A stretch of DNA of 64,000 nt from Pseudomonadota bacterium (GTDB lineage: Bacteria; Myxococcota_A; UBA9042; CAIXZC01), in NCBI GenBank assembly GCA_043815665.1, contig JBDRIT010000025.1:145490-209489 (forward strand), given 5' to 3'. The position numbers and the translations under genes are program-made. Below the pieces are notes generated by a model. That model had not been told where the DNA came from. It was given only the letters and a program-made list of their open reading frames with translations, and ran no database searches. Positions within the stretch are counted from its first letter, which is position 1, and each line of letters begins with the position of its first letter. Shown piece by piece: positions 11,920 to 53,374 of this stretch.

Positions 11920-11927
11920 GGACCGGA

Positions 11928-28920: not shown

Positions 28921-28979
28921 TCCCGCGCAGTCCGCGCGATACAATGCGGGTGCCTTGCACACCTTGGGGAGGTGTCTCC

Positions 28980-34279: not shown

Positions 34280-34481
34280 CCGGAGTCGATGCAGGAGTAT
34301 CGTCGAGGACTGTGACGGGAGAAACGGCCCGAGACAGCAGGAGGATCGGCGGATGCAGCAGATGGGTGGTGAGAAATTGTGGCTAGAATCCCCGGCCGGG
34401 AGGTTCGGTCCATGGGATTCCTGGTTCTCGTCGGCGCGGGAATGCAATACGGTCCTCGACAACCTATGACGAGGTGTCGAC

Positions 34482-35365: not shown

Positions 35366-38300
35366 TCAGAGCTGGAAACTGAAGAGGCTGAGTGTCCATG
35401 GCCACCCAAGGCCAGTGACAACGTAGACCGTGCCGTTGGTTTCTATCGCTAGCTGTGAGCCTCCCAGCCCGTCATCGACCAGGGGCACAGAGATCTCGTT
35501 CCAGGTCGTTCCATCGAAGGAGTGAAGGGTCAAGCCGGAATTGTTGAACATCGAGTGGAGCTTGGATTCGAAGGGCACCGTCGCTGTGCCGCTGTAGCTG
35601 CTGACAGTCGAGCAGATCTGCCACCCCGTCGCTGCGGTATGGCAGTAGGCGGGTGAGTGCTGTAAGGTCGCGACGATCGTCTCTCCTTGAATCGAAACGT
35701 GGTTGTTTGACGAGGTCTGAGCATTTGTAGGGAGGTCGCCGGGGTCTCCCACGACCGACCATGTGTCGTCGGAGAACCGCATAATGATGTTGTGTACCGA
35801 ATCGGCCCACTCAGGATCCGACGCGCCAATTCCAACCTCGCTCGGCTGCTGCGTGAAGAAGACATAGGGCGTCCCGCCGGTCACTGCGAGGTCAAAGAAG
35901 CCCTGCCCGCCATAGGACCACACACCGAGGCCCTCGGGGCCCGAGTAGCCGACCGGCTCCCAGGTGTTCGTGTCGGTGTCGAGCTTCTTGACGCTCAGCC
36001 GCCAGTTGTAACCCGAGCTTCCGTCCTCATTGTGTATGTAGGCGACGTAGAGGTCACCGTTGTCGTCGAAGTCGATCACGCTGCCGCCTGTCGTGCCGGG
36101 TGCGTGATTCGGTAACGCCTCCCAGGTGCTGTCTGAGTACACCCGGATAGCGCCAGAGAAACCGGAGACGTACAGCTTGTTGTCATTGACCTTGGCAGAG
36201 ATTACGTAGCTGAGCGGCATCTCCAAGCCGTCGCTGGCTGACACCCAGGCTTCCCCGTCCCAGCGGCGCACAGAGACCTCTCCCAAGGCTTCCTGTCCCG
36301 CCCACGCCGCCACGGTGACCAGGTACGGCTCGTCATCAAGGAGAGCCAGCTTGAATTTGTACGTGTTCGCCAGGAAATCTGTCGCCAGCTCCGTCCATTC
36401 GGGGATGATGACGTTGACGCAACCGCTCTCAGGATCGCAGGAGTCGGCGGTGCCTGGGTTGCCGTCGTCGCAGCCGCCCTCGGCGACAGGAACCGTTGCC
36501 GAGGGTGTGTGGTTACAGATGGCGCTTTCACCCGATGTGCAACTGTCCAGGGTGCAGGGGTCGTCGTCGTCACAACCGTCGGGCTCCAGGATCTCCACGG
36601 AAGGCGTGCCCGCGCAGGCGCCCTGGTCGTCGCAGACGTCGAGCAAGGTGCAGACATCCAGATCGTCACATGAGGTCTCCCCGGGCATGTCGCAGGCCTC
36701 GCTCTCCTCCAACATTGGGCATTCGACGCCACCGCAGGCAGGCTCCAGAGTGATCGCACGGCTATGAAGCCGGGTCCCCTGGCAGGTCCCGTCGTCGGTC
36801 TCGCATGACGCCCAGTCACCCCAGTCGGAGACCATGCAGTCGATGGGCACGTTGGTGTGGACGCAGCCGGTGGCTTCTTCGCAGGTGTCCGCGGAGCAAG
36901 GATCCTCATCCGTGCAGTCCACCGCGTCACCGGGCACGCACTGGCCCTCTGCGCAGATGTCGATGCCGGTGCAGGCGTTCTCATCGTCGCAGAGCTCTTG
37001 ATTGGGCGTAAAGACGCAGCCCTCCGCGGGGTCGCAGGAGTCATCGGTGCATGGGTTCTCGTCGTCGCAGACCTCGACGCCGGTGGTCATGCACTGCGAG
37101 TCTGCGCAGTGGTCACCGAGGGTGCAGGCGTCGTCGTCGGTGCACTCTGCCGCGTTCGCTGTGAAGACGCACTCGCCCTCCACGCAGACGTCGTCGGTGC
37201 AGACGTTCTCGTCATCGCAGACCTTGGCCATGCCCGACTGGCACGCACCCTCGACGCAGACGTCGCCCAGGGTGCAGGCGTCGGCGTCGGTGCACTCCAG
37301 GACGTTGTTGGCATTGACACACCCCGTCGCTGGATCGCAGGAGTCATCGGTGCAGACGTTCCCGTCGTCGCAGTCCGGGATCCCCGTGGTCACGCAGCTC
37401 CCCTCCTCGCAGTGGTCCCCCGTGGTGCAGGCGTCCGCGTCGGTGCAGGACTCCAGGTTGTTCGCGAAGACGCAGCCCGACGCGGGGTCGCAGGACTCGG
37501 TGGTGCAGACGTTGCCGTCGTCACAGTTCACGAGGGGCGCCAGCGTGAAGCAGCTCCCGCCGCTGCACATCTCGTCCACGGTGCACGCGTCCCCGTCGTC
37601 GCAGGGCAGGGTGTTGAAGTCGTGGACGCAGCCCACCGCGGGGGCGCAGGAGTCGTCGGTGCAGAGGTTCCCGTCGTCGCAGGGCAGCGCGCCCGTGGCC
37701 GCACAGACTTCGTCCTCGCAGTGATCCCCGACGGTGCAGAGGTTCACGTCGGTGCAAGGGTTGTCGTTGGGGGCGTAGACGCAGCCGGACATGGGATCGC
37801 AGGTGTCCGTGGTGCAGACGTTCTCGTCATGGCAGTTGGTCGGCAGGCCATCTTCGCACACCCCGGCGACGCAGATCGTGGCCATGGTGCAGAGATCCCC
37901 GTCATCACAGGCTGCCCCATCGTTGGCCGGCACGAAGGAGCACTCCCCCGTCCCTGGATCGCAGAAGCTCTCCAGGCACTCGGCCCCCAGCCCCTGGGGC
38001 TTCACGCACAGGGTCCAGGTGTAGGGGGTCACCGCGCACTTGGGCGGCAGGGCGATGAGGTCGCATTGGAGGGCTCCAGCGCAGAGGTCCAGGGCCGCGA
38101 TCTCGTCACAGTCCCCATCGACCGTGCAGCCGCACGGGACCTCGAAGCCGACGCAGACCCCGTCGGTGCAGTTGTCGCTGACCGTGCACGGGTCCATGTC
38201 GTTGCAGGGCACGTGGTTGTCCGGGTGGATGCAGCCGTCCACGGGATCGCAGACGTCGTCGGTGCAGAGGTCGCCGTCGTCGCAGTCGATCGCGTCCCCG

Positions 38301-38923
38301 GTGCACACGCCGGCGATGCAGGTGTCGTTCTCCGTGCAGATCGACGCGTCGTCGCATTCGGTCTCCCACACCAGCGCGTGGTCACAGTCACCGTCGGCCC
38401 CGCAAGAGTCGATGGTGCACACGTTGTCGTCGTCGCAGTCCACTGCCGATCCAGCGCAGATCCCGGCCCCGTCGCAGAGGTCGTCCTCGGTGCAGGGATC
38501 CCCGTCGTCGCAGGCCCCGCCATCGAGGAGTTCGCTGACACAGCCCTCGGTGCCCGCGCAGCTGTCCACGGTGCAGGGGTCCCCGTCGTCGCACTCGCCC
38601 GAGACCATGTCCAGGTTGTCCACCTCGCCGTCACAGTCGTTGTCGAGGCCGTCGCAGATCTCGTCCTCGGGGACGCAGGGCGGGGCCTCTGGTGGCAGAT
38701 CCTCCGGCGCCACGTCGAGATCGTCCGTCAGGACGTCCGACGCGTCCGGCATCATCGCGTCGGGTTCCACCTGGTCACCGGACACCAGCTCCGACACGTC
38801 CGGCTCGACCGCCGTGTCGGTGTCCTGGGTGGGTCCCGTGCATCCGAAGACCAGGACACAGGCCAGGAGGACGGCCGGGCGGACGAAAATCAACCCTGGT
38901 TTCATCATTCTCTCGTTCATCAT
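35366..38923 (-). CDS. Lipoprotein with ~35 tandem Myxo-type Cys-rich repeats (C-x-D-D/E-N-x-C-T-x-D-x-C) and a C-terminal beta-propeller-like domain
   Basis: Lipobox LVFGCTG. Repeats such as CDDGDPCTVDSCAGTEGC. C-terminal ~420 aa are Cys-poor. The ATG overlaps the upstream TGA (ATGA). Confidence 0.75.
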   Translation of the reverse strand: MMNERMMKPGLIFVRPAVLLACVLVFGCTGPTQDTDTAVEPDVSELVSGDQVEPDAMMPDASDVLTDDLDVAPEDLPPEAPPCVPEDEICDGLDNDCDGEVDNLDMVSGECDDGDPCTVDSCAGTEGCVSELLDGGACDDGDPCTEDDLCDGAGICAGSAVDCDDDNVCTIDSCGADGDCDHALVWETECDDASICTENDTCIAGVCTGDAIDCDDGDLCTDDVCDPVDGCIHPDNHVPCNDMDPCTVSDNCTDGVCVGFEVPCGCTVDGDCDEIAALDLCAGALQCDLIALPPKCAVTPYTWTLCVKPQGLGAECLESFCDPGTGECSFVPANDGAACDDGDLCTMATICVAGVCEDGLPTNCHDENVCTTDTCDPMSGCVYAPNDNPCTDVNLCTVGDHCEDEVCAATGALPCDDGNLCTDDSCAPAVGCVHDFNTLPCDDGDACTVDEMCSGGSCFTLAPLVNCDDGNVCTTESCDPASGCVFANNLESCTDADACTTGDHCEEGSCVTTGIPDCDDGNVCTDDSCDPATGCVNANNVLECTDADACTLGDVCVEGACQSGMAKVCDDENVCTDDVCVEGECVFTANAAECTDDDACTLGDHCADSQCMTTGVEVCDDENPCTDDSCDPAEGCVFTPNQELCDDENACTGIDICAEGQCVPGDAVDCTDEDPCSADTCEEATGCVHTNVPIDCMVSDWGDWASCETDDGTCQGTRLHSRAITLEPACGGVECPMLEESEACDMPGETSCDDLDVCTLLDVCDDQGACAGTPSVEILEPDGCDDDDPCTLDSCTSGESAICNHTPSATVPVAEGGCDDGNPGTADSCDPESGCVNVIIPEWTELATDFLANTYKFKLALLDDEPYLVTVAAWAGQEALGEVSVRRWDGEAWVSASDGLEMPLSYVISAKVNDNKLYVSGFSGAIRVYSDSTWEALPNHAPGTTGGSVIDFDDNGDLYVAYIHNEDGSSGYNWRLSVKKLDTDTNTWEPVGYSGPEGLGVWSYGGQGFFDLAVTGGTPYVFFTQQPSEVGIGASDPEWADSVHNIIMRFSDDTWSVVGDPGDLPTNAQTSSNNHVSIQGETIVATLQHSPAYCHTAATGWQICSTVSSYSGTATVPFESKLHSMFNNSGLTLHSFDGTTWNEISVPLVDDGLGGSQLAIETNGTVYVVTGLGWPWTLSLFSFQL

Positions 38924-41484
38924 AAGGACCTCGCACAGCGGAAGCCGATGTCACCGGTCTCGTCGTCGTCCTCGGGCACCCCCGCCCGGGTCGACACCGA
39001 GCAGGCCGCCGCAGCGTCGAGATAGCTGCCGCCGCGGACCACTCTCACGCCGTCACAACCCGTCTCCCAGGGTGGGTACCCCAGGGACGGCGCCCCGATG
39101 TAGCTCGGGTGGTAGCAATCAGACACCCACTCGGAGACGTTGCCGCTCATGTCGAAGAGGCCGGCGGCGTTCGCCAGCTTGCCACCGACCTCGTGCTTCG
39201 TCCCGTCGGAGTTGCCTGCGGTCCAGGCCACGTCGCCCAGACAGGCGCTGGCGCTCCCGCAGACGAACGCCGTGGCGCTGCTCCCGCGCAGGGCGAGCTC
39301 CCACTCGGCCTCCGTGGGCAGGCGCGCCCCGATCCGCTGGCAGAACTCCGCCGCCTGGGTCCAGGCCACGCACTCCACGGGGAACGCAGCGCCGGACGGG
39401 TCGCAGGAGGGCGTCAGACCCATGGAGAACTCGAAGTCCTCCTCCGTGACCTCCATCGCGAGGATCTCGAAGGGCTGCACCGCCACCGGGTGACTGGGGT
39501 ACTCGTCGGGATCGGGACAGATGCCTGTGGGGCAGCCCATCCAGAACTGGCCCCCGGGGATCGAGATCCACTCCAGGTCCGGCACGTTCTGCCCGCAGAC
39601 GCCCACGTAGCAGCCGAAGCCGGGATCGCAGTCCCCGCAGGTACCGCCGCACCAGTCGTCGCCGCACTCCTTGCCGCCGCAGATCGGCGTGCAGCAGGCG
39701 CCCTGGAAGCACTTCCCCGTGGCGCAGGGCTCGCCGTCGGTGACGGGCTCGTTGACGCAGCCCGAGGACGGGTCGCAGGAGTCCACGGTGCAGGTGGTGC
39801 CGTCGTCGCAGGCCGCGGACGCGTCCACGTAGTAGCACCCCTCCGTGGGGTCGCAGAGGTTCGTGGTGCACGCGTCGCCGTCGTCGCAGGGCAGGGGATC
39901 CACGCCGCTGCCGCAGCCACCAAGCGCGCAGGTGTCGCCCACGGTGCAGACGTCGCCGTCGTCGCAGGGCACGGTGTTCGGCGCGTGGACACAGCCCGTC
40001 GCCGGCGCGCAGGAGTCGTCGGTGCAGAGGTTCAGGTCGTCACAGTCCGGCGGCGGGCCGCCGACGCAGACGCCGGTGTCACAGACATCGTCCAGGGTGC
40101 AGGCGTTGCCGTCCACGCACTCCGCGCCGCTGGCCGGTGTGTAGAGGCAGCCGGGCCCCGGGTCGCAGAGGTCCGTCGAGCAGGGGTCACCGTCGTCACA
40201 GTCCACGGCCTCCGGGCCGACGCAGATCCCCTCCGAGCAGATGTCCGCGGTGGTGCAGGCGTCCCCGTCGCTGCACGGCGCCGTGTTGAAGACGTGCTGG
40301 CAACCGACGCCGGGCTGGCAGGAGTCCGTGGTGCAGAGGTTGTCGTCCTTGCAGTTCGTCGTGCCGCCGTTGACGCAGATCCCCGCCATGCAGGTCCCCG
40401 TCTTCGTGCAGATCTCCCCGTCCTCGCAGACGCCGCCCTCGTTGATGGCGACCACGCCGCAGTTCCCCGTGGAGCCGTCGCAGTGCGCAGCGACGCAGTC
40501 GGCGTTCGGCCCCTCCGGCGGCTCCGGACAGGACGGCACGGTGAGGGGATTCACCGCGCAGGTAAAGGGGAAGGTCGCGTAGTCACAGAAGAGGATCCCG
40601 TTGCAGAGGTCGCCGTCCTCCAGGACCAGGCAGTCGACGTCGTTCTCGCAGTCGCAGGGGAGCACGAAGCCGACGCATTCCCCCAGCGCGCACTCGTCGT
40701 CCACGGTGCAGGGGCTCCCGTCGTCGCAGGGCTCGAAGTTCGCGGTGAAGGTGCAGCCCGTCGCCGGCTCGCAGGAGTCGTCGGTGCAGAGGTTGCCGTC
40801 GTCGCAGGTCAGGGGCGTCCCTACGCACAGACCTTCGACGCAGAGCTTTGCGACGGTGCAGAGGTCCCCGTCCCAGCAGGGCACCGCGTCCAGGTCCTCG
40901 AAGGCACAGCCGCTCACCTTGTCGCAGCTGTCCTGGGTGCAGGGGTTCCCGTCGTCACAGTCGGTGAAGGTCCCCTGGCAGACGCCGTCCCCGCAGGTGT
41001 CCCCTGCGGTGCAGGCGTTGTCGTCGTCGCAGGCCACGTCGGTGAGGGACGCGAACTGGCATCCCTTCCCGGGCTCACAGGTCCCTACGATGCAGGGGTT
41101 TGGGTTGGCGCAGAGGGACTGATCCGGGTCCTCGGGCGGGTTGTCCACCACGCCGTCGCAGTCGTTGTCCTGGCCGTCGCAGATCTCCGGCTCGGGGACG
41201 CAGACGATCTCCTCGACCACCTCGACGACGTCGGGCTCGACCACCTCCATGACCAGATCGGGTTCCTCGGTGTCCTGGCCCGGGAGGACCTCCAGCACCA
41301 CCGCGTTGGGGTCCTGGATGCAGACCCCATCGGCACCGCAGACCTCTCCCGCGGGGCACTGCGAGTCGTTCAGGCAGGCGGTCCCGTCCCCGGTCAGCAC
41401 CAGGGTCCCCCCGTCGCAGGCGCCCAGGAGGATCACCAGGGCGAGGACCAGGCCCCGCACCGCACCAGTGGCTGTCCTATTCAT
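38920..41484 (-). CDS. Lipoprotein with Myxo-type Cys-rich repeats and a C-terminal formylglycine-generating-enzyme (FGE-sulfatase/SUMF1) family domain
   Basis: ggagaaggagatcggcaATG. Lipobox LVILLGAC. C-terminus WISIPGGQFWMG...RLPTEAEWE...GNVSEWVSD...RVVRGGSY...GFRCARS. The track ORF's upstream 31 codons are discarded. Confidence 0.75.
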   Translation of the reverse strand: MNRTATGAVRGLVLALVILLGACDGGTLVLTGDGTACLNDSQCPAGEVCGADGVCIQDPNAVVLEVLPGQDTEEPDLVMEVVEPDVVEVVEEIVCVPEPEICDGQDNDCDGVVDNPPEDPDQSLCANPNPCIVGTCEPGKGCQFASLTDVACDDDNACTAGDTCGDGVCQGTFTDCDDGNPCTQDSCDKVSGCAFEDLDAVPCWDGDLCTVAKLCVEGLCVGTPLTCDDGNLCTDDSCEPATGCTFTANFEPCDDGSPCTVDDECALGECVGFVLPCDCENDVDCLVLEDGDLCNGILFCDYATFPFTCAVNPLTVPSCPEPPEGPNADCVAAHCDGSTGNCGVVAINEGGVCEDGEICTKTGTCMAGICVNGGTTNCKDDNLCTTDSCQPGVGCQHVFNTAPCSDGDACTTADICSEGICVGPEAVDCDDGDPCSTDLCDPGPGCLYTPASGAECVDGNACTLDDVCDTGVCVGGPPPDCDDLNLCTDDSCAPATGCVHAPNTVPCDDGDVCTVGDTCALGGCGSGVDPLPCDDGDACTTNLCDPTEGCYYVDASAACDDGTTCTVDSCDPSSGCVNEPVTDGEPCATGKCFQGACCTPICGGKECGDDWCGGTCGDCDPGFGCYVGVCGQNVPDLEWISIPGGQFWMGCPTGICPDPDEYPSHPVAVQPFEILAMEVTEEDFEFSMGLTPSCDPSGAAFPVECVAWTQAAEFCQRIGARLPTEAEWELALRGSSATAFVCGSASACLGDVAWTAGNSDGTKHEVGGKLANAAGLFDMSGNVSEWVSDCYHPSYIGAPSLGYPPWETGCDGVRVVRGGSYLDAAAACSVSTRAGVPEDDDETGDIGFRCARSL

Positions 41485-42865
41485 TGCCGATCTCCTTCTC
41501 CGACACCTTGAACTCGACCCGGCGGTTGGCCTTGCGGCCCTCGGGGGTCGTGTTGTCCCCGATGGGGCGCTGGGCACCGAAGCCCTTCGCGTCGAGGCGT
41601 GCCGCGGGGACGCCCTTGCTGACCAGGTAGGTCACCACGGACTTCGCCCGGTCCGACGACAGCGCGAGGTTGCGGTCCGCGTCTCCCACGTTGTCCGTGT
41701 GCCCCTCGACCCGGATCTGATGCACCGCGGGGTGCGCCAGGATCCAGCGGGCGACCTCGTCCAGCTCCTTCATCGATGCGGGCAGGAGCACGTCTCGATT
41801 GGTCTCGAACTGCACCCGCTGCGCGATCTCCAGGAGCTCCTTCGGGGTCTCCACCGGCGGCGGAGGAGGAGGCGGAGGAGGCGGAGGAGGTGGAGGCGGC
41901 GGAGGCGGAGGCGGAGGCGGCGGAGGCGGAGGTGGCGGAGGTGGCGCCGGGGGCTCAAAGGTGCAGCGCTCGAAGCGGAACCCGGAGGTGACACGGAAGG
42001 CCGCCTCACCCATGCCGCCCACGAGGCCGCCGCCCCCCGCGACGTAGACCCGGGCCCAGTCGCCGACGCAGGCGTCGAGGCCCACCTGGCCCTCCATCGC
42101 GGTGCCATCCGTCGAGAGCCCTCCGACCCAGGAGGAGAACACCGTCATCTCGCCGAGGAGCCCGAGCTTGTCCTCCAGGAACCCCTGACGGAGCCCCAGG
42201 CCCATGGCCAGCCCGCTGCCGGCGTCGAAGCCGACGATGGTCTGCGTCTCCAGGAGCCGGACCCCCGCGTTCAGAGCGATCAACGTCGCGGTGGGGAACC
42301 GGTAGTCCAGAACCACCCGGGCCGCCCCCGAGAACCCGCCGGACCCGGAGTAGGTCCCCGCCGTCGCGGTGGGGAAGCCGATGTCCGCGTCCACGCCGAG
42401 GCCGAAGCCCGTCCTCACCCGCGGGAACGCCAGGAATCGGAGGCCGAGGCGCAGATCACCCAGGCCCCAGGCGTCCGCGGTGGGCGCGCCGGTGATCCCA
42501 GAGCTCCCCGCGGCGAAGAGCGTCACCGGGAGGTTCACCCCCACGGAGAGGCGGCGCCATCGGCTGAACGCGGCGAAGAGATCCCCGGTCAGGAGCTGCT
42601 CCACGGGGTGGAAGGTGGCGTCCCTCCCGGTCCTCTGATCATCGATGACCAGGGGATCCCGGGCGTAGGTGACGAAGAAGCCCCCGGAGAACCCGCCACC
42701 CAGCCAGGCGGCGGTCCGGATCATCATCAGATCCCCCGCGTGGGGGGAGGCCTCGAAGTGCTGCACGTTGAGCTTCGGCTCCCCACCCCGGGCGGGACCG
42801 CCGATGACGGCCGCCAGCAGGAGGACGCCGGCCGCTGCTCCGATTCGAATCCTGTTCATGGACAT
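41477..42865 (-). CDS. OmpA-family protein: N-terminal OM beta-barrel-like domain, ~30-residue polyproline linker, C-terminal OmpA peptidoglycan-binding domain
   Basis: Signal peptide MSMNRIRIGAAAGVLLLAAV. C-terminus RVEGHTDNVGDADRNLALSSDRAKSV...GFGAQRPIGDNTTPEGRKANRRVEF. Its stop lies inside an 8-nt overlap with the next gene's start. Confidence 0.8.
   Translation of the reverse strand: MSMNRIRIGAAAGVLLLAAVIGGPARGGEPKLNVQHFEASPHAGDLMMIRTAAWLGGGFSGGFFVTYARDPLVIDDQRTGRDATFHPVEQLLTGDLFAAFSRWRRLSVGVNLPVTLFAAGSSGITGAPTADAWGLGDLRLGLRFLAFPRVRTGFGLGVDADIGFPTATAGTYSGSGGFSGAARVVLDYRFPTATLIALNAGVRLLETQTIVGFDAGSGLAMGLGLRQGFLEDKLGLLGEMTVFSSWVGGLSTDGTAMEGQVGLDACVGDWARVYVAGGGGLVGGMGEAAFRVTSGFRFERCTFEPPAPPPPPPPPPPPPPPPPPPPPPPPPPPPPPPVETPKELLEIAQRVQFETNRDVLLPASMKELDEVARWILAHPAVHQIRVEGHTDNVGDADRNLALSSDRAKSVVTYLVSKGVPAARLDAKGFGAQRPIGDNTTPEGRKANRRVEFKVSEKEIGNE
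41853..41953 (-). repeat. Simple-sequence coding repeat (GGAGGC/GGAGGT)n on the plus strand, encoding ~30 consecutive prolines
   Basis: Read directly from the DNA. The protein run is PPAPPPP...P. Confidence 0.7.
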
Positions 42866-42925
42866 GCTCCTGGGTCCCTTCCCATGGTCAAGGTCGCGCG
42901 GCGATCACCGGGTCGGGTCAACATC

Positions 42926-45900
42926 TCAATTCGCTGGACCACAGTAGCCCCCATAGCCGTCCGGGTCCCCGGGCCAGCAGTACCAGGTCCCGGAGTGCCC
43001 GCAGTCCTGGCAGGTCCCGGCCTTCGCACCGCAGTACCCGTTCGACTGCTCGTGCCGGTAGTGGCAGCCCGTCATCCAGCCCTGGTAGGTCAGGTTCTGG
43101 AAGTTCGGGGCACAGCAGCCGGGGCAGCCCTTGCCCCCGGGGTACACGTACCCGCAGTCCTGCGGGCAGTTGCACATGGTCTCTTTGAACTGGCTCTCGC
43201 AGTTCTGGTTTCCGCATGCCAGGTAACACTTGCCGTCGTAGCCGCAGTATTGCTTGTTCTGGTCGGGGCAGACGCCGCAGTACACGCCGCAGACCGGATC
43301 GTTGCCGCAGACCCTCCCCGCGCAGGGCTGGCCGCAGTCCTGGGGGCAGGTGCATTTGGTCTCCCCAGCCTGACACTGCCCATTCCCACAGATCGGGTAG
43401 CAGTTGTTGCCGGAGCAGGTGTATCCGTTGGAGCAGGTGCCGCAGAACTCGCCGCAGACCGGCTCGGTCCCGCAGGTCTTGTTCGCGCAGGGTTGTCCGC
43501 AGTCCTCGGGGCAGTTGCACTTGGTCTCCCCGGGCTGGCACTGCCCGTTGCCGCAGACCGTCACACAGGTCCCCCCGTCGCAGGTCAGGTACTGGGGACA
43601 CGCGGGGCACTCGACACCGCAGACCGGATCGACGCCGCACTCCACATCGACGCAAGGGTCGCCGCAGTCCAGCGGGCAGGTACAGAGGGTCTCGCTCGGG
43701 TCGCAGAGGCCGTTGCCGCAGAGCAACAGGCAGGCGCCCGCGTCGCAGTACTCATCGACCGCACAGGTGCCGCAGCCGAAGCCGCAGACCGGATCCGCGT
43801 CGCACTCGATGCCCGCGCAGGGGTCGCCGCAGTCCTCGGCGCAGGAGCACAGGGTCTCGCCCTTGTCCACCTCGCAGCCGAACTCGCCGCAGGTCGGCGG
43901 GCAGTAGCCGCAGGTGTCGCAGGAGTCGGGGCAGCAGGTCCCGGCCAGGATGCACGCCTCGCTGCAGTCGCAGACCCCGCCGGAGCCGTCGCACTCGCAG
44001 GGGGAGCATGCATACGGGTCGTCGGGGCAGTCCAGGGGGCAATCGCACGAGGTCTCGTCGCCGTTGCACACCCCGTCCCCGCACGTGGGGGGGCAGACGC
44101 CGCAGAGGAGGCACGCGTTCACACAGCAGTTCCCGGCGTCCACGCAGTCCGGTCCGCAGCCGCAGGTCCCCCCGGACCCGCCGCACTCGCACAGGGAGCA
44201 GGTCGACGGATCGTCGGGGCAGTCCGCGGGGCAGGAGCAGGAGTTCTCCTTGCCGTTGCACTGGCCATCGCCGCACTCCGGGACGCAGACCCCGCAGGCG
44301 TCGCAGGAGTCCGCGCAGCAGTTCCCGGTGGCCACGCAGCTCGGGGCGCAGGAGCAGGAGCCCCCGGAGCCGCCGCAGTTGCAGGGGGAGCAGCTGAGGG
44401 GGTCGTCTGGGCACTCCACGGGGCAGGAGCAGGAGTCCTCGCCGTACCCCGGCTCACAGAGGCCGTTTCCGCAGCAGTCACCGCAGTCCTGGGGGCAGGC
44501 CTGGCAGGTCTCGTCCCCGTTGCACTGGCCGTCCCCGCAGGCCGGGGCGCAGTTGCCGCAGAGCTGGCAGTCGTTCGCACAGCAGGTCCCCGTCGCGATG
44601 CAGGCCGCGTCGCAGGCGCAGTTGCCGCCGGTCCCGCCGCACTCGCAGGCTGAGCAGGTCTCCGGATCGTCGGGGCAGTCCGCAAGGCAGGAGCAGCTGT
44701 CCTCCTGGTGCTGGACCTCGCAGAGGCCGTTGCCGCAGCACGGACCGCAGTCGATGGGGCAGCCGCTGCAGGTCTCGCCGTACTCGCAGCTGCCGTTGCC
44801 GCAGACCGCGGGGCAGGCCCCGCAGAGGCCACAGGCGTTGGCGCAGCAGGTCCCCAGCTGGACACAGTCCGGGCTGCAATCGCAGCTCCCCCCGGTGTCG
44901 CCGCACTGGCAGGCCGAGCAGGAGTTGGGGTTGTCGGGGCAGTCCGCGGGGCAGGAGCAGGAGTTCTCCTGGTACTTCGCCTCGCAGGCGCCGTTGCCAC
45001 AGCACGATCCGCAGTCACCGGGGCAGGAGGTGCAGGTCTCGCCCTCCTCGCAGGCCCCGTCGCCGCACTCCGGCGGGCAGGCGCCGCAGGTGTCACAAGC
45101 GTCGGCACAGCAGCTGTTCGTCACGTGGCAGAGGTCGTCACACCAGCAGCTCCCGCCGTTGCCGCCGCACTGGCAGGCAGAGCAGGAATCGAGATCATCT
45201 GGGCAGTCCGTGGGGCAGGAACAGGAGTCCTCTCCGAGGGCCGCCTGGCAGATGCCGTTCCCGCAGCAGCTCCCGCAGTCCGCCGGGCAGGTCCCGCAGC
45301 CTTCGGTGGCTGCGCAGGCTCCGCCCCCGCAGACCGCGGGGCAGGAGCCGCAGGCCGTGCACGCATTGGCGCAGCAGTCCCCGGTGAGCACGCAGGAGGG
45401 GCCGCACTTGCAGGCGTCGCCGCTACCCCCGCACTGACAGGGAGAGCATGTGTCGAGATCATCCGGGCAGTCCGCGGGACAGGAGCAGGAGGTCTCGTTC
45501 TGCTGGGGCTGGCACACCCCGTTGCCGCAACACGGGCCGCAGTCCGCCGGGCAGCTCTTGCAGCTCTCGGCGCCGGTGCACTGCCCGTCCCCGCAGACCA
45601 CGCAGAGGCCGCAGGACGAGCAGATGTTGGCGCAGCAGTTGCCGGTCAGGCCGCAGTCCGGGGCGCAGCTGCAGCTCCCGCCGCTGGTGCCGCACTGACA
45701 GGAGGAGCAGGTGTTCGGGTTGTCAATGCAGTCGGCCTCGCAGGAGCAGGAGGACTCGTTGAAGTTGGCCTCGCACTGCTGGTTTCCGCAGCAGAGCCCA
45801 CAGTCCTGAGGACAGGTCCCGCACTTCTCGCCGTTGTCGCACTGGCCGTTGCCGCAGCACTGGCCGCAGTCCGGCACGCAGGTGAGGCAGGTCTCCCCCT

Positions 45901-46450
45901 GAGCGGCCTTGCACTGGCCGTCCCCGCAGCAGTCGCCGCAGTCCTGCTTGCACGTGCTGCAGCTCTCCCCCTTCCCGGGCTCGCACTTGCCGTCGCCGCA
46001 GCAGATCCCGCAGTCCTGGGGGCAGGTGCCACAGTTCTCGTTGGCCGCGCAGACGCCGTTGGGGCAACAGGGGCCGCAGTCCTGGGGACAGGTGATGCAG
46101 TCCTCGGTCAGGTCGCAGGTGTAGTTGCCGCAAGCCAGGCCGCAGTCCTCGGGGCAGTTGACCTGGTTCTCCATGCCGTTGCATTCCCCGTTGACGCAGC
46201 AATGGCCGCAGTCCTCGGTGCAGTTGCAGGGCGACTCGCCGCTGGCTTCGTCACACTTGCCGTTGCCGCAGAGGGTCGAGCAGTCCTGGGGGCAGCTCTC
46301 GAGCTCGCCCGGGGTGCAGACCCCGTCGCCGCAGTGGACGCCGCAGTCCGCGGGGCAGGTGAGCGCGTTCTCTCCCTTGGCCGAATCGCAGAACAAATCA
46401 CCGCAGTAGGGAAGGCACTTGCGATCCTGGCAGAAGTGGGTGGACTCGCA
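42926..46450 (-). repeat. Intragenic array of Cys-rich coding repeats (three nested periodicities)
   Basis: Periodic CP[AQ]DCG.CCGNG.C in the translation, with corresponding partial DNA periodicity. Confidence 0.7.
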
Positions 46451-47863
46451 GGTGCCGCAGCTCTTGAAGCAGATGGGATCGTAGCTGCACTCGCAGCCGG
46501 TGAAGTTCGGGACGCAGGTGGTGTCCAGGGTCGGGTCCTTCTCGTCCCCTGCGATGAACTTGGGGAAGGGGTTGTCATCGCCCAGGATCCACCCGAGGAG
46601 CTCCGGCGACGCGTAGTCGAAGAGCGTCATCCCCATGATCTCCCCGGCGACCCCCACGTAGGCCTCGACGCCCCACTCCAGGACCCACCAGGGCAGGGCC
46701 TTGTTCAGCAGGTCCTTGATGCCGGCCCGGAGCTGGATGTACACGTCGGCCTGCACGTAGGGGCCGGCCACGCCGAAGATCTTGGCCGCCAGCTTGAGCC
46801 CGGAGTAGACCTTGACCAGGGCCTCGATCCCGAACTCGGGCTCGGTGTAGTCGAAGGATCCGTCGAAGTTGGAGTAGGGGTTGAACCCGTCCCCGCTGTC
46901 CCCGTAGTCCCGGTAGTCGATGCCGACCTCGACGCTGATGCTCGACGTCACCGTGGTCTCGAGGGTGAAGAAGACGCCGACCTCCCAGGCGAGGAACAGC
47001 TCGAGGCTGATGTTCAGCGGGACCGGCCCGATCATGAGCGTTCCGAGGTTCAACGTGGCGAGGGTCTGGCTCCCCTCCATCTTCAAGACGGGCGCCTTGA
47101 TGAGGAAGTCGAGCTCACTCTCCGCCTCGACGAGGGTGCCGACCCGCAGGTGGTAGAGCTGCAGGAGGATGCCGATGTCGATGTCGAACTGGAGGGTCAT
47201 CCCGAAGTCGATGGTCCCGCCGACGGTGATCTGGTCCGTCGTCGTGGCCGAGTTGGCGTCCGCGTCGAAGATCACGATGGGCGGGAAGGTGATTGAGAAC
47301 AGGTCGCCGCCGAGCTCGCTGTACCCGGCGTACAGGGACAACACCGGGGAGCGCTTGACCTCCAGGCCGTCGATCTTGGTCTCGTAGTTGTCCATGTCCT
47401 CGTAGCGGGCGTTGCGCACCAGCTCGATGTGGAGCTCGTCGAAGGCCTCCTCGAGGGTCGCCGGCTCGGTCTCCACGCTGACGGTGCCGTCGGGGTTCAC
47501 GGTCTTGGACTTGACCTTGAACAGCCCGCCCTGGGGCGTCTTGGACGAGGGCCCGAACATCAGGACGTTCCCCTCCACCGCGTCGGCCACCAGGGGGGAG
47601 TCCGCGGCGAGGACCATGGCCCCCGCCGTCCCGGACACGGGGATCGAGAGGACCGTGGCCTCGACCTCATCGGGCAGCATCGTGCGGGTGGTCGCCGGCA
47701 GCTCGTACTCGACCTTCATCACCTCGTCGAGGCCCTTGGGCTTCTTCTTGAGCTGGACCGCTCCGTGCTCCTCGTCGGAGCACGCTGCGACGCCGAGGAG
47801 CAGGGCCAGACCAAGGATCCCGGAAAGCAGATGAATCGTGCGTCGCATGGTGTTCTCCATCAT
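42926..47863 (-). CDS. Giant Cys-rich repeat lipoprotein (1645 aa): ~470-aa N-terminal domain followed by a hierarchical array of C-P-x-D-C-G-x-C-C-G-N-G-x-C modules
   Basis: Lipobox ALLLGVAAC. One nucleotide separates it from the upstream OMP gene's stop. Six ~22-aa units, then five to six ~88-aa super-repeats, then four ~55-aa units. ~25% Cys. Confidence 0.8.
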   Translation of the reverse strand: MMENTMRRTIHLLSGILGLALLLGVAACSDEEHGAVQLKKKPKGLDEVMKVEYELPATTRTMLPDEVEATVLSIPVSGTAGAMVLAADSPLVADAVEGNVLMFGPSSKTPQGGLFKVKSKTVNPDGTVSVETEPATLEEAFDELHIELVRNARYEDMDNYETKIDGLEVKRSPVLSLYAGYSELGGDLFSITFPPIVIFDADANSATTTDQITVGGTIDFGMTLQFDIDIGILLQLYHLRVGTLVEAESELDFLIKAPVLKMEGSQTLATLNLGTLMIGPVPLNISLELFLAWEVGVFFTLETTVTSSISVEVGIDYRDYGDSGDGFNPYSNFDGSFDYTEPEFGIEALVKVYSGLKLAAKIFGVAGPYVQADVYIQLRAGIKDLLNKALPWWVLEWGVEAYVGVAGEIMGMTLFDYASPELLGWILGDDNPFPKFIAGDEKDPTLDTTCVPNFTGCECSYDPICFKSCGTCESTHFCQDRKCLPYCGDLFCDSAKGENALTCPADCGVHCGDGVCTPGELESCPQDCSTLCGNGKCDEASGESPCNCTEDCGHCCVNGECNGMENQVNCPEDCGLACGNYTCDLTEDCITCPQDCGPCCPNGVCAANENCGTCPQDCGICCGDGKCEPGKGESCSTCKQDCGDCCGDGQCKAAQGETCLTCVPDCGQCCGNGQCDNGEKCGTCPQDCGLCCGNQQCEANFNESSCSCEADCIDNPNTCSSCQCGTSGGSCSCAPDCGLTGNCCANICSSCGLCVVCGDGQCTGAESCKSCPADCGPCCGNGVCQPQQNETSCSCPADCPDDLDTCSPCQCGGSGDACKCGPSCVLTGDCCANACTACGSCPAVCGGGACAATEGCGTCPADCGSCCGNGICQAALGEDSCSCPTDCPDDLDSCSACQCGGNGGSCWCDDLCHVTNSCCADACDTCGACPPECGDGACEEGETCTSCPGDCGSCCGNGACEAKYQENSCSCPADCPDNPNSCSACQCGDTGGSCDCSPDCVQLGTCCANACGLCGACPAVCGNGSCEYGETCSGCPIDCGPCCGNGLCEVQHQEDSCSCLADCPDDPETCSACECGGTGGNCACDAACIATGTCCANDCQLCGNCAPACGDGQCNGDETCQACPQDCGDCCGNGLCEPGYGEDSCSCPVECPDDPLSCSPCNCGGSGGSCSCAPSCVATGNCCADSCDACGVCVPECGDGQCNGKENSCSCPADCPDDPSTCSLCECGGSGGTCGCGPDCVDAGNCCVNACLLCGVCPPTCGDGVCNGDETSCDCPLDCPDDPYACSPCECDGSGGVCDCSEACILAGTCCPDSCDTCGYCPPTCGEFGCEVDKGETLCSCAEDCGDPCAGIECDADPVCGFGCGTCAVDEYCDAGACLLLCGNGLCDPSETLCTCPLDCGDPCVDVECGVDPVCGVECPACPQYLTCDGGTCVTVCGNGQCQPGETKCNCPEDCGQPCANKTCGTEPVCGEFCGTCSNGYTCSGNNCYPICGNGQCQAGETKCTCPQDCGQPCAGRVCGNDPVCGVYCGVCPDQNKQYCGYDGKCYLACGNQNCESQFKETMCNCPQDCGYVYPGGKGCPGCCAPNFQNLTYQGWMTGCHYRHEQSNGYCGAKAGTCQDCGHSGTWYCWPGDPDGYGGYCGPAN

Positions 47864-47864
47864 G

Positions 47865-48788
47865 TCAGTTCTCCACCCGCTGCCGGGGCTCCCAGGCTAC
47901 GTGCAGCATCGCTTCCCAGGCCGCGGAGCCCGCCAGATCACCGAACCCGGCGCCGCCGGCGACGCCGATCATCAAGTCTGAACCCGCACGCACCTGCAGG
48001 CCGCCGCGGATCGCGGTGGCGAGGGACCGCTCGCCGGTGAACGCAGAGTCCACCAGGGTGCGGGTCTGGCTGCTCAGAAGGAGCTCCAGGCGATCCCGCA
48101 GGATGGGGATCCGAAGGCCGATCCCCAGGAGCAGCTCGTCGCTCACGGGCGGGGTGAACTCCCGCGCTGCCTTGCGGGCCAGGTAGCCCACGTTGAGGGC
48201 CACGATGAAGCCCTTGATCTGGTAGTCCAGGATCAGCCGCGTGACCGACGTCGGCGCGTCCGCGCCGAAGAGCTTGTCCCCCACGGAGGTCGGCAGGGTC
48301 AGGTCCTGGGCCACCCCGAGGCCGAAGCCCTTGTTGTGGTTGTCCCAGAACTTCGCCTTGAAGGAGAGCCTGAGATCGCCCAGGCCTGCCCCGGCGACCT
48401 GCGTCCACGCTGGATTGACCAGCGCGGGATCCCCGCCCGCTGAGTGGAGCAGCACCGGCAGATCGATGCCGACGCTGGCCAGGCCGAAGAGAGGCAGCGC
48501 GACCTGGAGGTCACCGACGAGCTGGTCGCCCACCAGGGCCACCTCACCCTCGCCCTCGAAGCCCACCGCGACCAGGGGGTCCTTGCGGTAGGTAAACCAC
48601 ACACCCCCGGAGACCCCAAGGTGGGGCCCGACCCGGGTCGTCACCGTGTCGAGGATGTCCCCGGCGTGAGGAGAGGGCTGGAAGTCATCGACGTTGATCT
48701 TCGGGTTGCCTGCATGGGCGAGCGGGCCCGCACAGACACAGAAGATCGTGACAAGAGCCAAGAGGGTACAGTTCGCAGGTCGCACCAT
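47865..48788 (-). CDS. Outer-membrane beta-barrel protein, paralogous to the N-terminal domain of the OmpA-family gene; first gene of the operon
   Basis: Signal peptide MVRPANCTLLALVTIFCVCAGPLAHAG. NPKINVDDFQPSPHAGDIL parallels PKLNVQHFEASPHAGDLM of the OmpA gene. ATG at 48788 preceded by aaggcggtgg. Confidence 0.65.
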   Translation of the reverse strand: MVRPANCTLLALVTIFCVCAGPLAHAGNPKINVDDFQPSPHAGDILDTVTTRVGPHLGVSGGVWFTYRKDPLVAVGFEGEGEVALVGDQLVGDLQVALPLFGLASVGIDLPVLLHSAGGDPALVNPAWTQVAGAGLGDLRLSFKAKFWDNHNKGFGLGVAQDLTLPTSVGDKLFGADAPTSVTRLILDYQIKGFIVALNVGYLARKAAREFTPPVSDELLLGIGLRIPILRDRLELLLSSQTRTLVDSAFTGERSLATAIRGGLQVRAGSDLMIGVAGGAGFGDLAGSAAWEAMLHVAWEPRQRVEN

Positions 48789-48874
48789 GGGGTCCACCGC
48801 CTTCGTGTCAGACTCAGCGCAGAACGCGAGGCGAATTTATCCTGCCTGCTCAATGAAAAGACAATAGACGCCGT

Positions 48875-48911
48875 AGAATGTCCGAAACGGCTGGCAGAAC
48901 GTCCGAAACGC
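48875..48911. promoter_or_regulatory. Direct repeat AGAAYGTCCGAAACG x2 with 21-bp phasing, ~90-120 nt upstream of the operon start and downstream of the AraC-HTH regulator gene
   Basis: agaatgtccgaaacgg (48875-48890) and agaacgtccgaaacgc (48896-48911), read directly from the sequence. Confidence 0.35.
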
Positions 48912-48942
48912 CACAGCGCTGCGCCCACCGTGGCCGATCAAG

Positions 48943-51900
48943 TCACGTGACCCGGTCCCCCGATGGCGGGTGGCCGTACCAGGCAGAGTAGACCTGTGAG
49001 AAGTAGCTGGCGCTCATCCCCACCCTTGCGGCCACCTCTGCCGACGTGTCGAATTCCCCGGATCTCAGCATGGAGCGCGCCTCCTCCAGGCGCAGCTGGC
49101 GGACGAGCTGGACCGGCCCGAAGCCTGTGGCCTCCCGACACCGCCGCTGGAGCTGCCGGGGACTCAGGGCCATCTCCCGCGCCAGGGCCGGCACGGAGAA
49201 CTCAGGATCGGCCAGGTGGACCAGCACGATGGAGCGGAACTTCTCCCAGAAGACCCGGCCCGCCGGCGTCACCTTTATCCCCTCCGGTGACTCTGCCCCG
49301 GCCGCAGTCACAGCGGACGTGCCTGCAGCAACGTCGACCCCCGAACGAACGATCTGGTTGCGTACCCGCGAGAGGAGATCCTTGATCCCGAAGGGCTTCG
49401 CCAGGTAGTCATCGGCGACGGCCAGCCCCTCGGCGCTCGCACCGGGGCCGGACCGCGCCGAGATCAGCACGACCCGCACCTCCGCCAGCTGGGGATTCGA
49501 CCGGATCGCCGCCGCAAGCTCCAGGCCGTCCATCCGAGGCATCATGATATCCGACACCACCACCCGGGGCCGCTCCCTGCGAACGAACTCGAGGGCCTCC
49601 CGACCGTCCCTGGCCTGGGCCACCCGACCGAGGCCGGTGAGGTGTGAGGCGAGGTAGGACCGCATGTCCTCGTTGTCCTCCACCACCAGCACGAGGGGCT
49701 CGTCTTCGCCCCGGTCTTCCCCGTCACCCTGGATTTCAGCCGACGGGACAGCCCCACCCGAGGCCTCCGCCTCGAGCTGATCCAGGGTGAGGTGCTGCAC
49801 CCCCATGGGCAGGCGGACCAGGAAGCGGCACCCCGTCCCCTCGGCGTCATCGAATCCGATCTGCCCGCCGTGGAGCTCGACCAGCTCCCGGCAGAGGGAG
49901 AGCCCGATGCCCATTCCCTGGGGTCTCCATCCCTGTCTGGGCACCTGGCAGAAGCGCTCGAAGATCCGCTCCCTCGCGGCGACGGGGATTCCGGGCCCGG
50001 TGTTGAGGACGGTCAGCGTCACGTACGCTGTGCCCCACCCGTCCTCCTCCTGGCCGGGAGCCGGTCCATGGGTCGAGACCAGGACGCGTCCTCCCCGGGG
50101 GGTGTGCTGCAGGGCATTGGTCACGAGATTGGACAGCACCGTTTCCATGAGATCCGCGTCGAAGTACAGCGACAACTCCCCCGGTCCCGTGTCCGCAGCG
50201 AAGTCCAGGCCCCGGTCAGCCGCGTCGACCTCGAAGCGCTCGACGGTTCGCCGCACGAAGGCGGCGAAGTCCTGCCTGCGGGTTCTGAGCCTCATCGCGC
50301 TGCCGTCCAGGAGGGCGACCTTCACGAGCTGTCCGATCAGCTCGTGAAGGCGTGTCGCGTTTCTCCGGATCACGTCCAGGGTTCGAAGCTCCTCGCCGCC
50401 CGTGCCCCCCAGACAGGCCGCCAGATCCTCCAGGGGCCCCAACACCAGGGCGATGGGGGTCTTGAGCTCGTGGGACACGTTCGCGAGGAACCGGGTCTTC
50501 ATCCGGTCGGTCTCTTCCAGCCGCCGGGCCTGGTCTTCCAGGGTCCCTTCCCGTGCCTTCAGCAGGGCGGTTGCCTCCCTGACCTGGACCTCGAGCTCCC
50601 GCTTCCGACGGCGCAGCCGCCGCGTCCGCTGCCACGCCAGGGCGCCGACCAACACCAGGCCGGCGAAGACCAGCAACGCAATGAACATCCAGGTCTCGTT
50701 GAACGCGGGCCTGCGGTGGACGTCCAGCCGCACCGGCTCCCCCCAATCCAGGAGCCCGGCCTGGACCTCGAAGGTGTATCCACCCGGGGGCAGGTTCGTC
50801 CAGGAGGCGACGCGCCCGGCCCCGGGTGCGCTCCAGGCATCGTCGAAGCCCGCCAGCCGGTAGCGGAACCTCACGTCCTCGGGCCAGACCAGCTCCGGGC
50901 AGTGCCAGCGCACGGAGAAGCCCCTCTCCTCGGGCTCGAGGACGATCCGCTCCGGGATGTCGGACGGATCGACGGTCCGATCACCGTACGTGATGGTCTC
51001 GATGGCCGCCCGGGGAGGGGGCGGCGTCGGGAAGCTCTCCGGGCGCACGCCGGAGAGCCCCACCTGCGTCGGATACCAGAGGAGGCCGTCGGGGGATCCC
51101 GCCAGGGCGGGCTGCATGTATCCGTTGGCTTCGCCGGACGCCATGCCGTCACTCTGGTCCAGGGTCAGCGCGAGGACGTGGTCCCGGTCTGAGGAGAAGT
51201 ACGCCTCCAGCACCGCCCGCTCGAGGATCGAGATGCCCCGGTTGCTGCTCAACCAGATCCGTCCGAGCCGATCTTCGGCTACGGAGTGGATGGTGTCGTC
51301 GGGCAGGCCGGCCGCCCGGCTCACGCACACCCTGGGCCCCGCGGTCATCCCATCCTGCCCCAGACCCACCCTGCAGAGGCCGGAGTCGTCGGTGCCCAGC
51401 CAGGCAACACCGCCGCGGTCGACGGTGACGAAGCGGATGCCGACGCTCCCGAGGCCCGGGTCCGGGCTGAAGGACTCCCGCTCCCCCGACCGATACCGCA
51501 CGAGCCCGCGATCCCGGGTCGCGATCAGCACCGACCCGTCAGGGGCCTCGGCGAACATCCGCACGGTGTCGGAGCCCAGGTCACCGCCCCCCGCCACCCG
51601 CCTCGACGTCCAGGAGCCCCCCTGCTCCTCGATGTTCCAGAGACCGCCCGTGATGTTCGAGTACCAGATCTTCCCGGTCGCGTCCTGGTAGCCAGGCCCC
51701 CGCTGCCAGTTCATGTCACCGAGGGGCGGCAGGGGCACGCACCGGTCCCCGTCCACCTGGCAGATCCCGCCGTTCGAAGGAATCCACACGCGCCCGTCCC
51801 GCAGCAGGATGGGTGGATACGCCGTGATCTTCGCTCCCGCGTCGGGCACGCTGGTTCCGGTCACCGCGATGCGCGTGGCCCCTCCGGCCCCGATCCGCAC

Positions 51901-53085: not shown

Positions 53086-53374
53086 CCTGCTCCTTGCGTG
53101 CATGTGTGTGGGCCAAAGTGCCCCATCCGATGTGGGGGTGGCCCTGCACTCCGCGGTTCCTCCGAATCATCCCATGCCCTCCGACAAATTCAAGCCCTAT
53201 CAACTCTTCCACTGGCACTCCCTCTTGCATGGCGCGCCGGAGGAGCGTATAGAATGCGCACGTCCATCCCGGACTGCGGCGAAGGAAAGACGCCACGACA
53301 CCCAGGCAACAACAGGCGACGGCAGCGCTCCGCATCGAAGCCTTCGAGCTCTCCTCCCTCGTGGATACCACCCC

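Follow-up and report, generated by a model that had tools for sequence, protein, structure and literature searches.

A conserved gene cluster pairing TraB-related outer-membrane barrels with giant cysteine-rich lipoproteins in an uncultured, probably myxobacterial, lineage

Introduction

What would an outer membrane use two related beta-barrels for, when they are encoded in one tight run of genes with three very large lipoproteins packed with cysteine? The question is raised by five minus-strand genes, here called A to E, in a 64,000-nucleotide stretch of DNA (contig JBDRIT010000025.1, positions 145,490 to 209,489; assembly GCA_043815665.1) that is referred to, in its full length, as the window. 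A and C encode the barrels; B, D and E encode the lipoproteins. A reading made from the letters and open reading frames alone (the sequence-only reading) had taken the five genes for a dedicated envelope module with no characterised counterpart. A partial counterpart does exist, since both barrels are, by sequence comparison, homologous to the barrel of TraB and the gene order mirrors that of traA and traB (PMC3325183). The interpretation that we favour, with moderate confidence, is that the cluster encodes a TraAB-like, wall-tethered outer-membrane platform displaying disulfide-stiffened stalk-and-head adhesins or receptors.

Two systems serve as points of reference. To our knowledge, TraAB is the only characterised bacterial machine for contact-dependent outer-membrane fusion and exchange with kin recognition. 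TraB consists of a signal peptide, a barrel, TSP3 repeats and an OmpA domain, and TraA of a signal peptide, a PA14-like variable domain, a Cys-rich stalk and a MYXO-CTERM tag; the gene of this Cys-rich stalk surface protein lies immediately upstream of traB, with a 4-nt overlap (PMC3325183, PMC6372800). TraA and TraB bind each other 1:1, and TraB, by binding peptidoglycan, anchors and restrains TraA; they reach the outer membrane independently of one another, the OmpA domain of TraB is needed for exchange, and the TraA stalk has been modelled with intramolecular disulfides (PMC12045341). The other reference is the Glt platform of Myxococcus gliding, with the barrels GltA, GltB and GltH, the proteins GltK and GltC and the lipoprotein adhesin CglB (PMC4488436, PMC9946355). 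The paired Glt barrels are not needed for the export of CglB to the surface, only for its retention there (PMC9946355).

Results

Organization of the cluster

Five long head-to-tail open reading frames (ORFs) occupy 35366-48797 of the minus strand, and the translations of all five were read. Gene A (47865..48788) starts with an ATG, an alternative GTG lying at 48797, and is followed on the same strand by B (42926..47863, 1645 aa), C (41477..42865, 462 aa), D (38920..41484, 854 aa counted from its ATG) and E (35366..38923, 1185 aa). The junctions, read directly from the sequence, are tight throughout: TGA-C-ATG with a 1-nt spacer between A and B, a 60-nt gap between B and C, ATGAATAG with an 8-nt overlap between C and D, and ATGA with a 4-nt overlap between D and E. 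The start of D has been placed at the ATG at 41484 because a proper lipoprotein signal peptide results and the orthologues agree. As a measure of coding quality, the GC content at third codon positions (GC3) of the five ORFs is 0.85-0.93, compared with about 0.68 for the overall GC of the window; the long plus-strand ORFs opposite the cluster are antisense shadows of this 68%-GC sequence. Judged by eye, all five products carry export signals, which are type I signal peptides in A and C and lipoboxes in B (VAAC), D (LGAC) and E (LLAC or VFGC). The start that NCBI (PGAP) assigns to gene A lies nine codons downstream of the ATG used here, and with it the charged n-region of the signal peptide is lost. 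The sequence-only reading had reported the five head-to-tail genes, these four junctions and a signal peptide or lipobox on every product, all of which hold. Its estimate of well over 500 cysteines in the three repeat proteins proved too high, the actual total being 491 (277 in B, 100 in D and 114 in E).

Spacing and synteny (see below) suggest that the five genes are co-transcribed as a single operon. A scan for consensus promoters and terminators on the minus strand inside 35366-48911 found none, although it was crude and not decisive, and no structured RNA or riboswitch in the window reached the gathering score of an Rfam model. That the long Cys-rich ORFs arose by collapse of the assembly or by frameshift was considered and rejected, since the DNA copies of the repeats in B are just 60-80% identical to one another and orthologues of similar length are collinear with it over 1,403-1,588 aa.

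The barrels of A and C are related to TraB

Gene A encodes a signal peptide and an outer-membrane beta-barrel, with neither OmpA domain nor linker. In C, a signal peptide and a barrel (~28-300) are followed by a poly-proline linker (~304-337) made of 34 consecutive prolines and by an OmpA-like peptidoglycan-binding domain (353-448), which matches PF00691 with 82.6 bits (cut-off 27.2). The two barrel proteins are paralogues (36% identity over 224 aa, E 7e-23), and the start N-x-x-x-F-x-SPHAGD is kept across both the A and the C families, so that the kinship noticed by eye in the sequence-only reading is borne out, as is its OmpA assignment for C.

The family to which both belong is that of TraB. 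The only NCBIfam model matched by A is NF033763 (exchanger_TraB), with E 2e-25 and 88.8 bits over model positions 13-298 of 522, and C matches the same model more strongly (E 1.1e-40, 139.2 bits) in two stretches covering the barrel and the OmpA parts. In BLASTP comparisons with the TraB of Archangium gephyra, A aligns with 31% identity over 239 aa (E 2e-18) and the barrel of C with 25% over 334 aa (E 3e-9), the best segment of C being its OmpA part (39% identity over 108 aa, E 1e-22). A profile built from eleven A-type and C-type barrels was aligned to the Archangium TraB with hhalign, giving a probability of 99.7% and E 4e-26 over 282 columns, i.e. the whole barrel. Taken together, these alignments identify the barrels of A and C as homologues of the TraB barrel. 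Among the named relatives of C, the strongest matches are to myxobacterial proteins.

The same comparisons place both proteins outside TraB proper. The cut-off of the NF033763 family is 700 bits, so that scores of 139 and 89 bits mark C and A, at the level of sequence, as paralogues of TraB within a different system and not as its orthologues. C also falls outside the definition of TraB orthologs given in PMC6372800 (BLASTP E<1e-100 and coverage >80%). No TSP_3 match was found in C, and the barrel-TSP3-OmpA architecture of TraB is present in neither C nor A. The linker of C is Pro-rich in its close orthologues; in more distant proteins (from loci L004, L006 and L007, see below) it consists of TSP3-like DxDxDG motifs, as in TraB.

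Other barrel families gave far less. A matches PF13557 (Phenol_MetA_deg) marginally, with 24.6 bits at a cut-off of 22, and is annotated by NCBI as 'transporter'; C has no direct match to this model, which is precomputed for many of its relatives. Searched against the PDB, the profile of the A and C barrels retrieved no COG4313 chain, and no solved structure was matched by sequence. PF13557 is the sole Pfam match of A, and the Pfam models for the Slam (DUF560) barrel and for TPR had no match in A or C.

The gene order is conserved in uncultured bacteria

The contigs that encode homologues of C and A, all of them from metagenomes or metagenome-assembled genomes (MAGs), were identified, and the loci on them are designated by L and a number. 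The order A-B-C-D(-E), with tight junctions, is found in at least five independent contig lineages (L001/L009, L002/L003, L008, L012/L013 and L014) at protein identities of 48-78% to the window: 48-73% for A, 59-78% for B, 53-73% for C and 53-63% for D. Locus L012 has the order A-B-C-D-E', where E' stands for a fifth gene with an Lcl_C head, and repeats the junction pattern of the window (1 nt, ~60 nt, 8 nt and 4 nt). In L002 and L008 the order is A-B-C-D with overlaps of 4-16 nt and the fifth gene is absent; L014 has A-B-C-D in a contig that stops inside D, and L001 and L009 have B-C-D-E' in contigs cut inside B. The spacing between B and C ranges from gaps of 67 nt (L012) and 34 nt (L001) to overlaps of 4 nt (L008) and 16 nt (L002). 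Without exception, orthologues of A (41-73% identity) immediately precede either an orthologue of B or C, and those of D immediately follow C. Since the flanking genes differ in every locus, we take the conserved unit to be A-B-C-D plus a variable fifth stalk-and-head gene. By gene order, then, the five-gene cluster is a conserved unit, and its tight junctions, together with the lack of internal consensus promoters or terminators in the scan above, agree with the dedicated envelope module that the sequence-only reading had envisaged; the co-localisation in related genomes that it had named as a check was found.

More distant TraB-like barrel-OmpA genes (L004, L006 and L007) also adjoin genes for large Cys-rich or Dicty_CTDC proteins, so that the association of a TraB-type barrel with a Cys-rich surface protein looks general. 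In L004, positions 7835-12289 encode a TPR protein, an A-type barrel and a C-type barrel-TSP3-OmpA protein, preceded by two giant proteins and followed by a MazE/PIN toxin-antitoxin pair; the TPR gene with its paired barrels is reminiscent of gltC/gltA/gltB of Myxococcus gliding.

A pattern scan of 185,579 species-representative genomes returned a single related locus (78% identity), which lies in the MAG of an uncultured Myxococcales bacterium. With this MAG as the sole match, the module appears, at the sensitivity of a pattern scan, to be absent from cultured reference myxobacteria. The host is probably an uncultured myxobacterial lineage. Its MAG is labelled just 'Pseudomonadota bacterium', a label that looks too coarse or outdated, since the close relatives and the homologues with names all indicate Myxococcota.

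The giant lipoprotein B

Gene B (MFH1529682.1, annotated as a hypothetical protein) encodes a lipoprotein whose lipobox cysteine is Cys28 and which consists of a beta-rich N-terminal domain followed by ~1,200 aa of CGxGxC...CPxDC-type repeats. As a whole it remained without a match in Pfam and NCBIfam, even when E values up to 10 were admitted. The TIGR02232 match that had been suggested from the sequence was searched for and not obtained for B, D or E, and neither TIGR04201 nor MYXO-CTERM matched any of the three, again at E<=10 and assuming that the NCBIfam library holds these TIGRFAM models. In B the MYXO-CTERM tag (TIGR03901) is missing at the sequence level too, the protein ending in ...GYGGYCGPAN with no hydrophobic or basic tail. 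No match to a PA14-like variable domain was found, and the N-terminal domain models as a different fold.

The Cys-rich repeat region (42929..46519, minus strand, residues 449-1645) is built of 22-aa CGxGxC..CPxDCGxC modules, arranged in 88-aa super-repeats (264-nt period) and 55-aa repeats (165-nt period), and ends in a divergent C-terminal tail. Orthologues of B are similar in length (1653-1734 aa) and in cysteine content (278-296). Along five of them, mean pairwise identity is 70-82% in the repeat core and 41-55% in the first ~100 and the last ~150 residues.

The N-terminal domain of ~400 aa (46583..47722, minus strand, residues ~48-427) belongs to a large family. An exhaustive HMMER search gave 1,424 cluster representatives (clusters at 50% identity), 532 of them at E<=1e-10. 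A word-indexed protein search with the same domain had found no relatives, a zero that, set against the HMMER result, is an artefact of low sensitivity. Members occur in at least three phylum-level groups, and the few with a taxon name include Nitrospirota and Thermodesulfobacteriota. The relatives are mostly lipoproteins, in which the domain is followed by varied modules of the binding type (FGE-sulfatase, Lcl_C, CarboxypepD_reg, fn3, PKD, RCC1, LRR and LamG). No Pfam model covers the domain; the consensus of the family touches DUF7223 below threshold. An obligatory link between this base domain and TraB-like barrels was considered and rejected for distant members, because L010 and L011 encode distant relatives of the domain with no TraB-like barrel within 8 kb; the domain is thus not strictly dependent on such a barrel.

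With an alignment of 100 sequences, AlphaFold predicts the domain with a predicted local distance difference test score (pLDDT) of 83 and a predicted template modelling score (pTM) of 0.79; the single-sequence prediction (pLDDT 32) was not usable. The model has a small alpha/beta part followed by a meander of ten consecutive strands of 12-20 residues joined by tight turns. The long strands have one nearly all-hydrophobic face and one polar face, with 8-10 alternating residues per strand. In a beta-barrel, hydrophobic faces of 8-10 alternating residues exceed what one membrane leaflet pair needs. Comparison of the model with solved structures found no close neighbour, and the domain may be built as a barrel, as a sandwich or as a groove for lipid. 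What is newly seen here, with the fold resting on the model, is a large lipoprotein domain family lacking a Pfam model, with a confidently predicted fold and no close solved neighbour.

The stalk-and-head lipoproteins D and E

Lipoprotein D combines a Cys-rich Dicty_CTDC stalk (PF00526, 87.8 bits) with a C-terminal FGE-sulfatase or C-type-lectin-like head (residues 638-852; PF03781, 145.5 bits), in line with the FGE-type domain read from the sequence. The nearest solved relative of the head is TvpA of Treponema (2y3c, E 1.6e-21), followed by FGE (6muj), and PorK structures also align. Where the Streptomyces FGE (6muj) has the active-site motif YLCHDSYC, D has YLDAAAAC, the first Cys being replaced by Asp, so that one of the two catalytic cysteines of FGE has been lost. 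Scores of D with the NCBIfam models for GldK, GldJ and PvdO were far under their cut-offs. Along these lines, no catalytic function is evident from the sequences of the cluster proteins, which agrees with the earlier remark that there is no catalytic motif apart from the FGE fold. The likeness to TvpA led us to consider a diversity-generating retroelement, which was rejected because the window holds no template-like second copy of the C-terminal coding region of D; no reverse transcriptase turned up in the neighbouring ORFs scanned, the window itself not having been searched for one.

Lipoprotein E has a Dicty_CTDC stalk (PF00526, 147 bits), a TSP1-like module (696-746) that matches PF19028 near threshold (40.8 bits, cut-off 41) and a Cys-poor C-terminal domain (~850-1185). 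The latter gave weak Kelch matches (E about 0.01) and contains four [FWY][SD]xxxW motifs, with a fifth by eye. Of the beta-propeller that the sequence-only reading had seen here, the blade motifs and a weak family match are therefore present, and from its sequence the propeller itself is plausible. The stalks of D and E are paralogous (40% identity over 626 aa), and the fifth gene keeps the stalk and swaps the head, which is Kelch-like in the window and Lcl_C in L001 and L012. In the 5' parts of the two genes, an 80-nt stretch (41124-41203 in D and 38599-38678 in E) is 83% identical and encodes the common motif C-x-P-E-x-E-I-C-D-G-x-D-N-D-C-D-G. This value, well above the 60-70% of other repeat copies, suggests that sequence was recently duplicated, or exchanged by gene conversion, between the two genes.

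Flanking regions

The only sizeable intergenic region (48798..48942) lies upstream of A and contains a 15-nt direct repeat, CGTTTCGGAC[AG]TTCT (CGTTTCGGACRTTCT repeats), in two copies 21 nt apart (48875..48910, minus strand), ~85-120 nt upstream of the start of A. These two are the only matches of CGTTTCGGAC[AG]TTCT in the window, where 0.10 would be expected by chance. The gene on the far side (48943..53103, minus strand) encodes a hybrid two-component protein in which Pfam recognizes a Reg_prop/Y_Y_Y sensor, HisKA-HATPase, a receiver and an AraC-type helix-turn-helix. Since the repeats lie directly downstream of this gene, they are a candidate regulator-binding site, perhaps the operator for its product, which is in turn a possible regulator of the module. 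The repeat was not found upstream of A in L002 and L008, and the hybrid kinase gene is not conserved beside the module in other loci.

Further upstream on the strand of the cluster there are two paralogous arylsulfotransferase (ASST, PF05935) genes (53824-55467 and 55631-57664), which are not conserved beside the module in other loci either. On the other side, ~1.27 kb 3' of E (34099-35365) contain no convincing gene, the candidate ORFs having a GC3 of 0.59-0.72 in a local GC of 0.62. A short ORF (MCGICGV...) just past the stop of E resembles the N terminus of an asparagine-synthase-type amidotransferase and may be a gene remnant. Beyond it, two M16 peptidase genes and an ArsA-like ATPase gene are followed by a plus-strand ORF (28917-32156, 1079 aa) with weak Ig-like matches (Big_7) only, near the start of which there is an 18-nt tandem repeat (29132-29290) coding for a six-residue peptide unit.

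Discussion

A wall-tethered display platform and its alternatives

The results suggest the following way of working. The barrels of A and C would sit in the outer membrane, and the OmpA-like domain of C would bind peptidoglycan. By analogy with TraAB, the barrels would keep lipoproteins B, D and E on the surface of the cell and provide their mechanical link to the wall. B would contribute a beta-rich base of ~400 aa and a Cys-repeat stalk of ~1,200 aa, while D and E would contribute Dicty_CTDC stalks with an FGE/lectin-like or a Kelch-like head. Stiffened by hundreds of disulfides, the stalks would project the lectin-like heads, which may bind ligands on other cells, prey, the matrix or the substratum. 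The likeliest specificity determinants would be the divergent distal tail of B and the exchangeable heads of the fifth gene. Beyond homology and synteny, the interpretation of the cluster is something that we infer, and the formation of a complex and its adhesive or receptor function are proposed by analogy.

Several observations weigh against this interpretation. B has no detectable likeness to TraA and lacks the PA14-like domain, the TIGR04201 repeats and the MYXO-CTERM tag; its lipid anchor is N-terminal and that of TraA C-terminal, so that its topology with respect to the membrane must differ. No hypervariable recognition domain of the TraA kind was seen among the five B orthologues. Both A and C score well below the TraB family cut-off, their marginal link to COG4313 and Phenol_MetA_deg leaves room for a role in transport, and the relatives of the base domain in L010 and L011 have no TraB-like barrel near them. 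Finally, B, D and E are presumed to be exposed at the surface, to which a periplasmic location is the alternative.

How else could the cluster be read? If the barrels formed a translocon, Slam-like or type-V-like, their task would be to carry lipoproteins B, D and E through the outer membrane, export prevailing over anchoring. Three lipoproteins with extracellular-type domains do need a route to the surface, and the conserved adjacency (barrel gene A 1 nt from the giant lipoprotein gene, C overlapping D) would suit such a task. The barrels, however, show no similarity to the Slam (DUF560), Omp85/TpsB or autotransporter families, and the fold matches are weak, with high root-mean-square deviations. 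Both precedents also argue against it, the Glt barrels being dispensable for CglB export (PMC9946355) and TraA and TraB localising independently (PMC12045341), and distant relatives of the B base domain have no adjoining barrels; we therefore consider a translocon unlikely. Quite improbable, in our view, is a true equivalent of TraAB, in which B would be a kin-recognition receptor, C (with A) its partner, and cells would fuse and exchange their outer membranes. In its favour, both barrels are homologous to TraB, a Cys-rich stalk gene directly precedes the barrel-OmpA gene as in traAB (PMC3325183), and C has the OmpA domain that in TraB is required for exchange (PMC12045341). Against it, B has none of the defining features of TraA, and its orthologues have no hypervariable domain; C lies outside both the published ortholog definition and the NF033763 cut-off, and the conserved genes A and D have no counterpart in TraAB.

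A and C could also be channels of the COG4313 / Phenol_MetA_deg type for hydrophobic small molecules, with the lipoproteins either unrelated or acting as accessory substrate binders. This would explain why PF13557 matches A, why it is precomputed for many relatives of C and why NCBI names A a 'transporter'. The match is barely above its cut-off, however, and the barrel profile finds no COG4313 structure, while the barrels resemble TraB far more strongly and over their full length, and TraB is not known to act as a channel. A simple uptake channel would also leave unexplained why its genes are so closely and constantly joined to those of three giant surface lipoproteins, and the surroundings contain no conserved catabolic genes, so that we give this explanation very little weight. 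Least probable of all seems to us the disulfide-cross-linked surface lattice or extracellular matrix, polymerised from the Cys-rich proteins, that the sequence-only reading had put forward. The extreme cysteine content of the three exported proteins had pointed that way, and Cys-rich proteins are typical of extracellular matrices, as was remarked for TraA (PMC3325183). None of our tests spoke in favour of a lattice: there is no S-layer, SLH or self-assembly domain, the regular spacing of the cysteines in short repeats fits intramolecular stalk disulfides as in the TraA model (PMC12045341), and a stalk plus exchangeable heads is typical of adhesins and not of lattice subunits.

Returning to the wall-tethered display platform, what is new in it is, by sequence comparison, the existence of TraB-family barrels with an OmpA domain (C) and without it (A), stably paired with quite different and much larger disulfide-rich surface lipoproteins. 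TraB-type barrels have thus diversified, as these uncultured relatives of the myxobacteria show. Should the proposed function prove right, the cluster proteins would be candidate adhesins, between cell and cell or cell and prey, of uncultured organisms. A more daring idea, which we consider doubtful, is that the N-terminal domain of B represents a new, widespread class of membrane-associated module for the anchoring, export or lipid handling of surface lipoproteins. If it were true, this domain and the TraB-type barrels would make up a previously unrecognised envelope machine showing disulfide rods on the 50-nm scale, which might even bridge cells or exchange membrane material and extend the TraAB principle beyond the TraA family.

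Comparison with known systems

The likeness to the COG4313 channels (e.g. PDB 4rl8) is limited to the marginal PF13557 match in A, and the same precomputed match in many TraB-like relatives; there is no sequence match to the solved channel, and the context is one of surface lipoproteins and not of aromatic catabolism. PorK/GldK and GldJ resemble D in being lipoproteins with an FGE-sulfatase fold that in D appears non-enzymatic (one catalytic Cys missing), but no other components of a type IX secretion system accompany it, and D has a Dicty_CTDC Cys-rich stalk of ~600 aa. TvpA, a lectin-fold variable protein, is the top structural relative of the head of D, and differs in that there is no diversity-generating retroelement repeat here.

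With the Glt-CglB system the cluster would share two paralogous, co-encoded barrels together with a disulfide-rich outer-membrane lipoprotein adhesin that is retained and presented at the surface. GltA and GltB, however, are described as OmpA-type barrels (PMC4488436) and not TraB-type; CglB is a VWA protein with 17 cysteines and not a repeat stalk, and no motor or periplasmic Glt components are encoded near the cluster.

The closest parallel is with TraAB. Both barrels are, by sequence comparison, homologous to that of TraB, C has the overall layout of TraB with a flexible linker, and the long Cys-rich exported stalk protein B is encoded directly upstream of the barrel-OmpA gene C and translationally coupled to it in several orthologous loci. 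With a Cys-rich stalk gene directly before a barrel-OmpA gene in both cases, B followed by C repeats the logic of traA followed by traB. The differences lie in the parts: C has a poly-proline instead of a TSP3 linker and is joined by a second barrel, A, that lacks an OmpA domain; B has 2.4 times the length of TraA and a lipobox at its N terminus in place of the MYXO-CTERM tag; and the unit includes two further stalk-and-head lipoproteins, D and E. The platform would work like TraAB and like Glt-CglB (PMC9946355) while being a member of neither. This suggests a general design, in which a TraB-like barrel is a wall-tethered socket for a Cys-rich stalk receptor and of which TraAB would be one special case.

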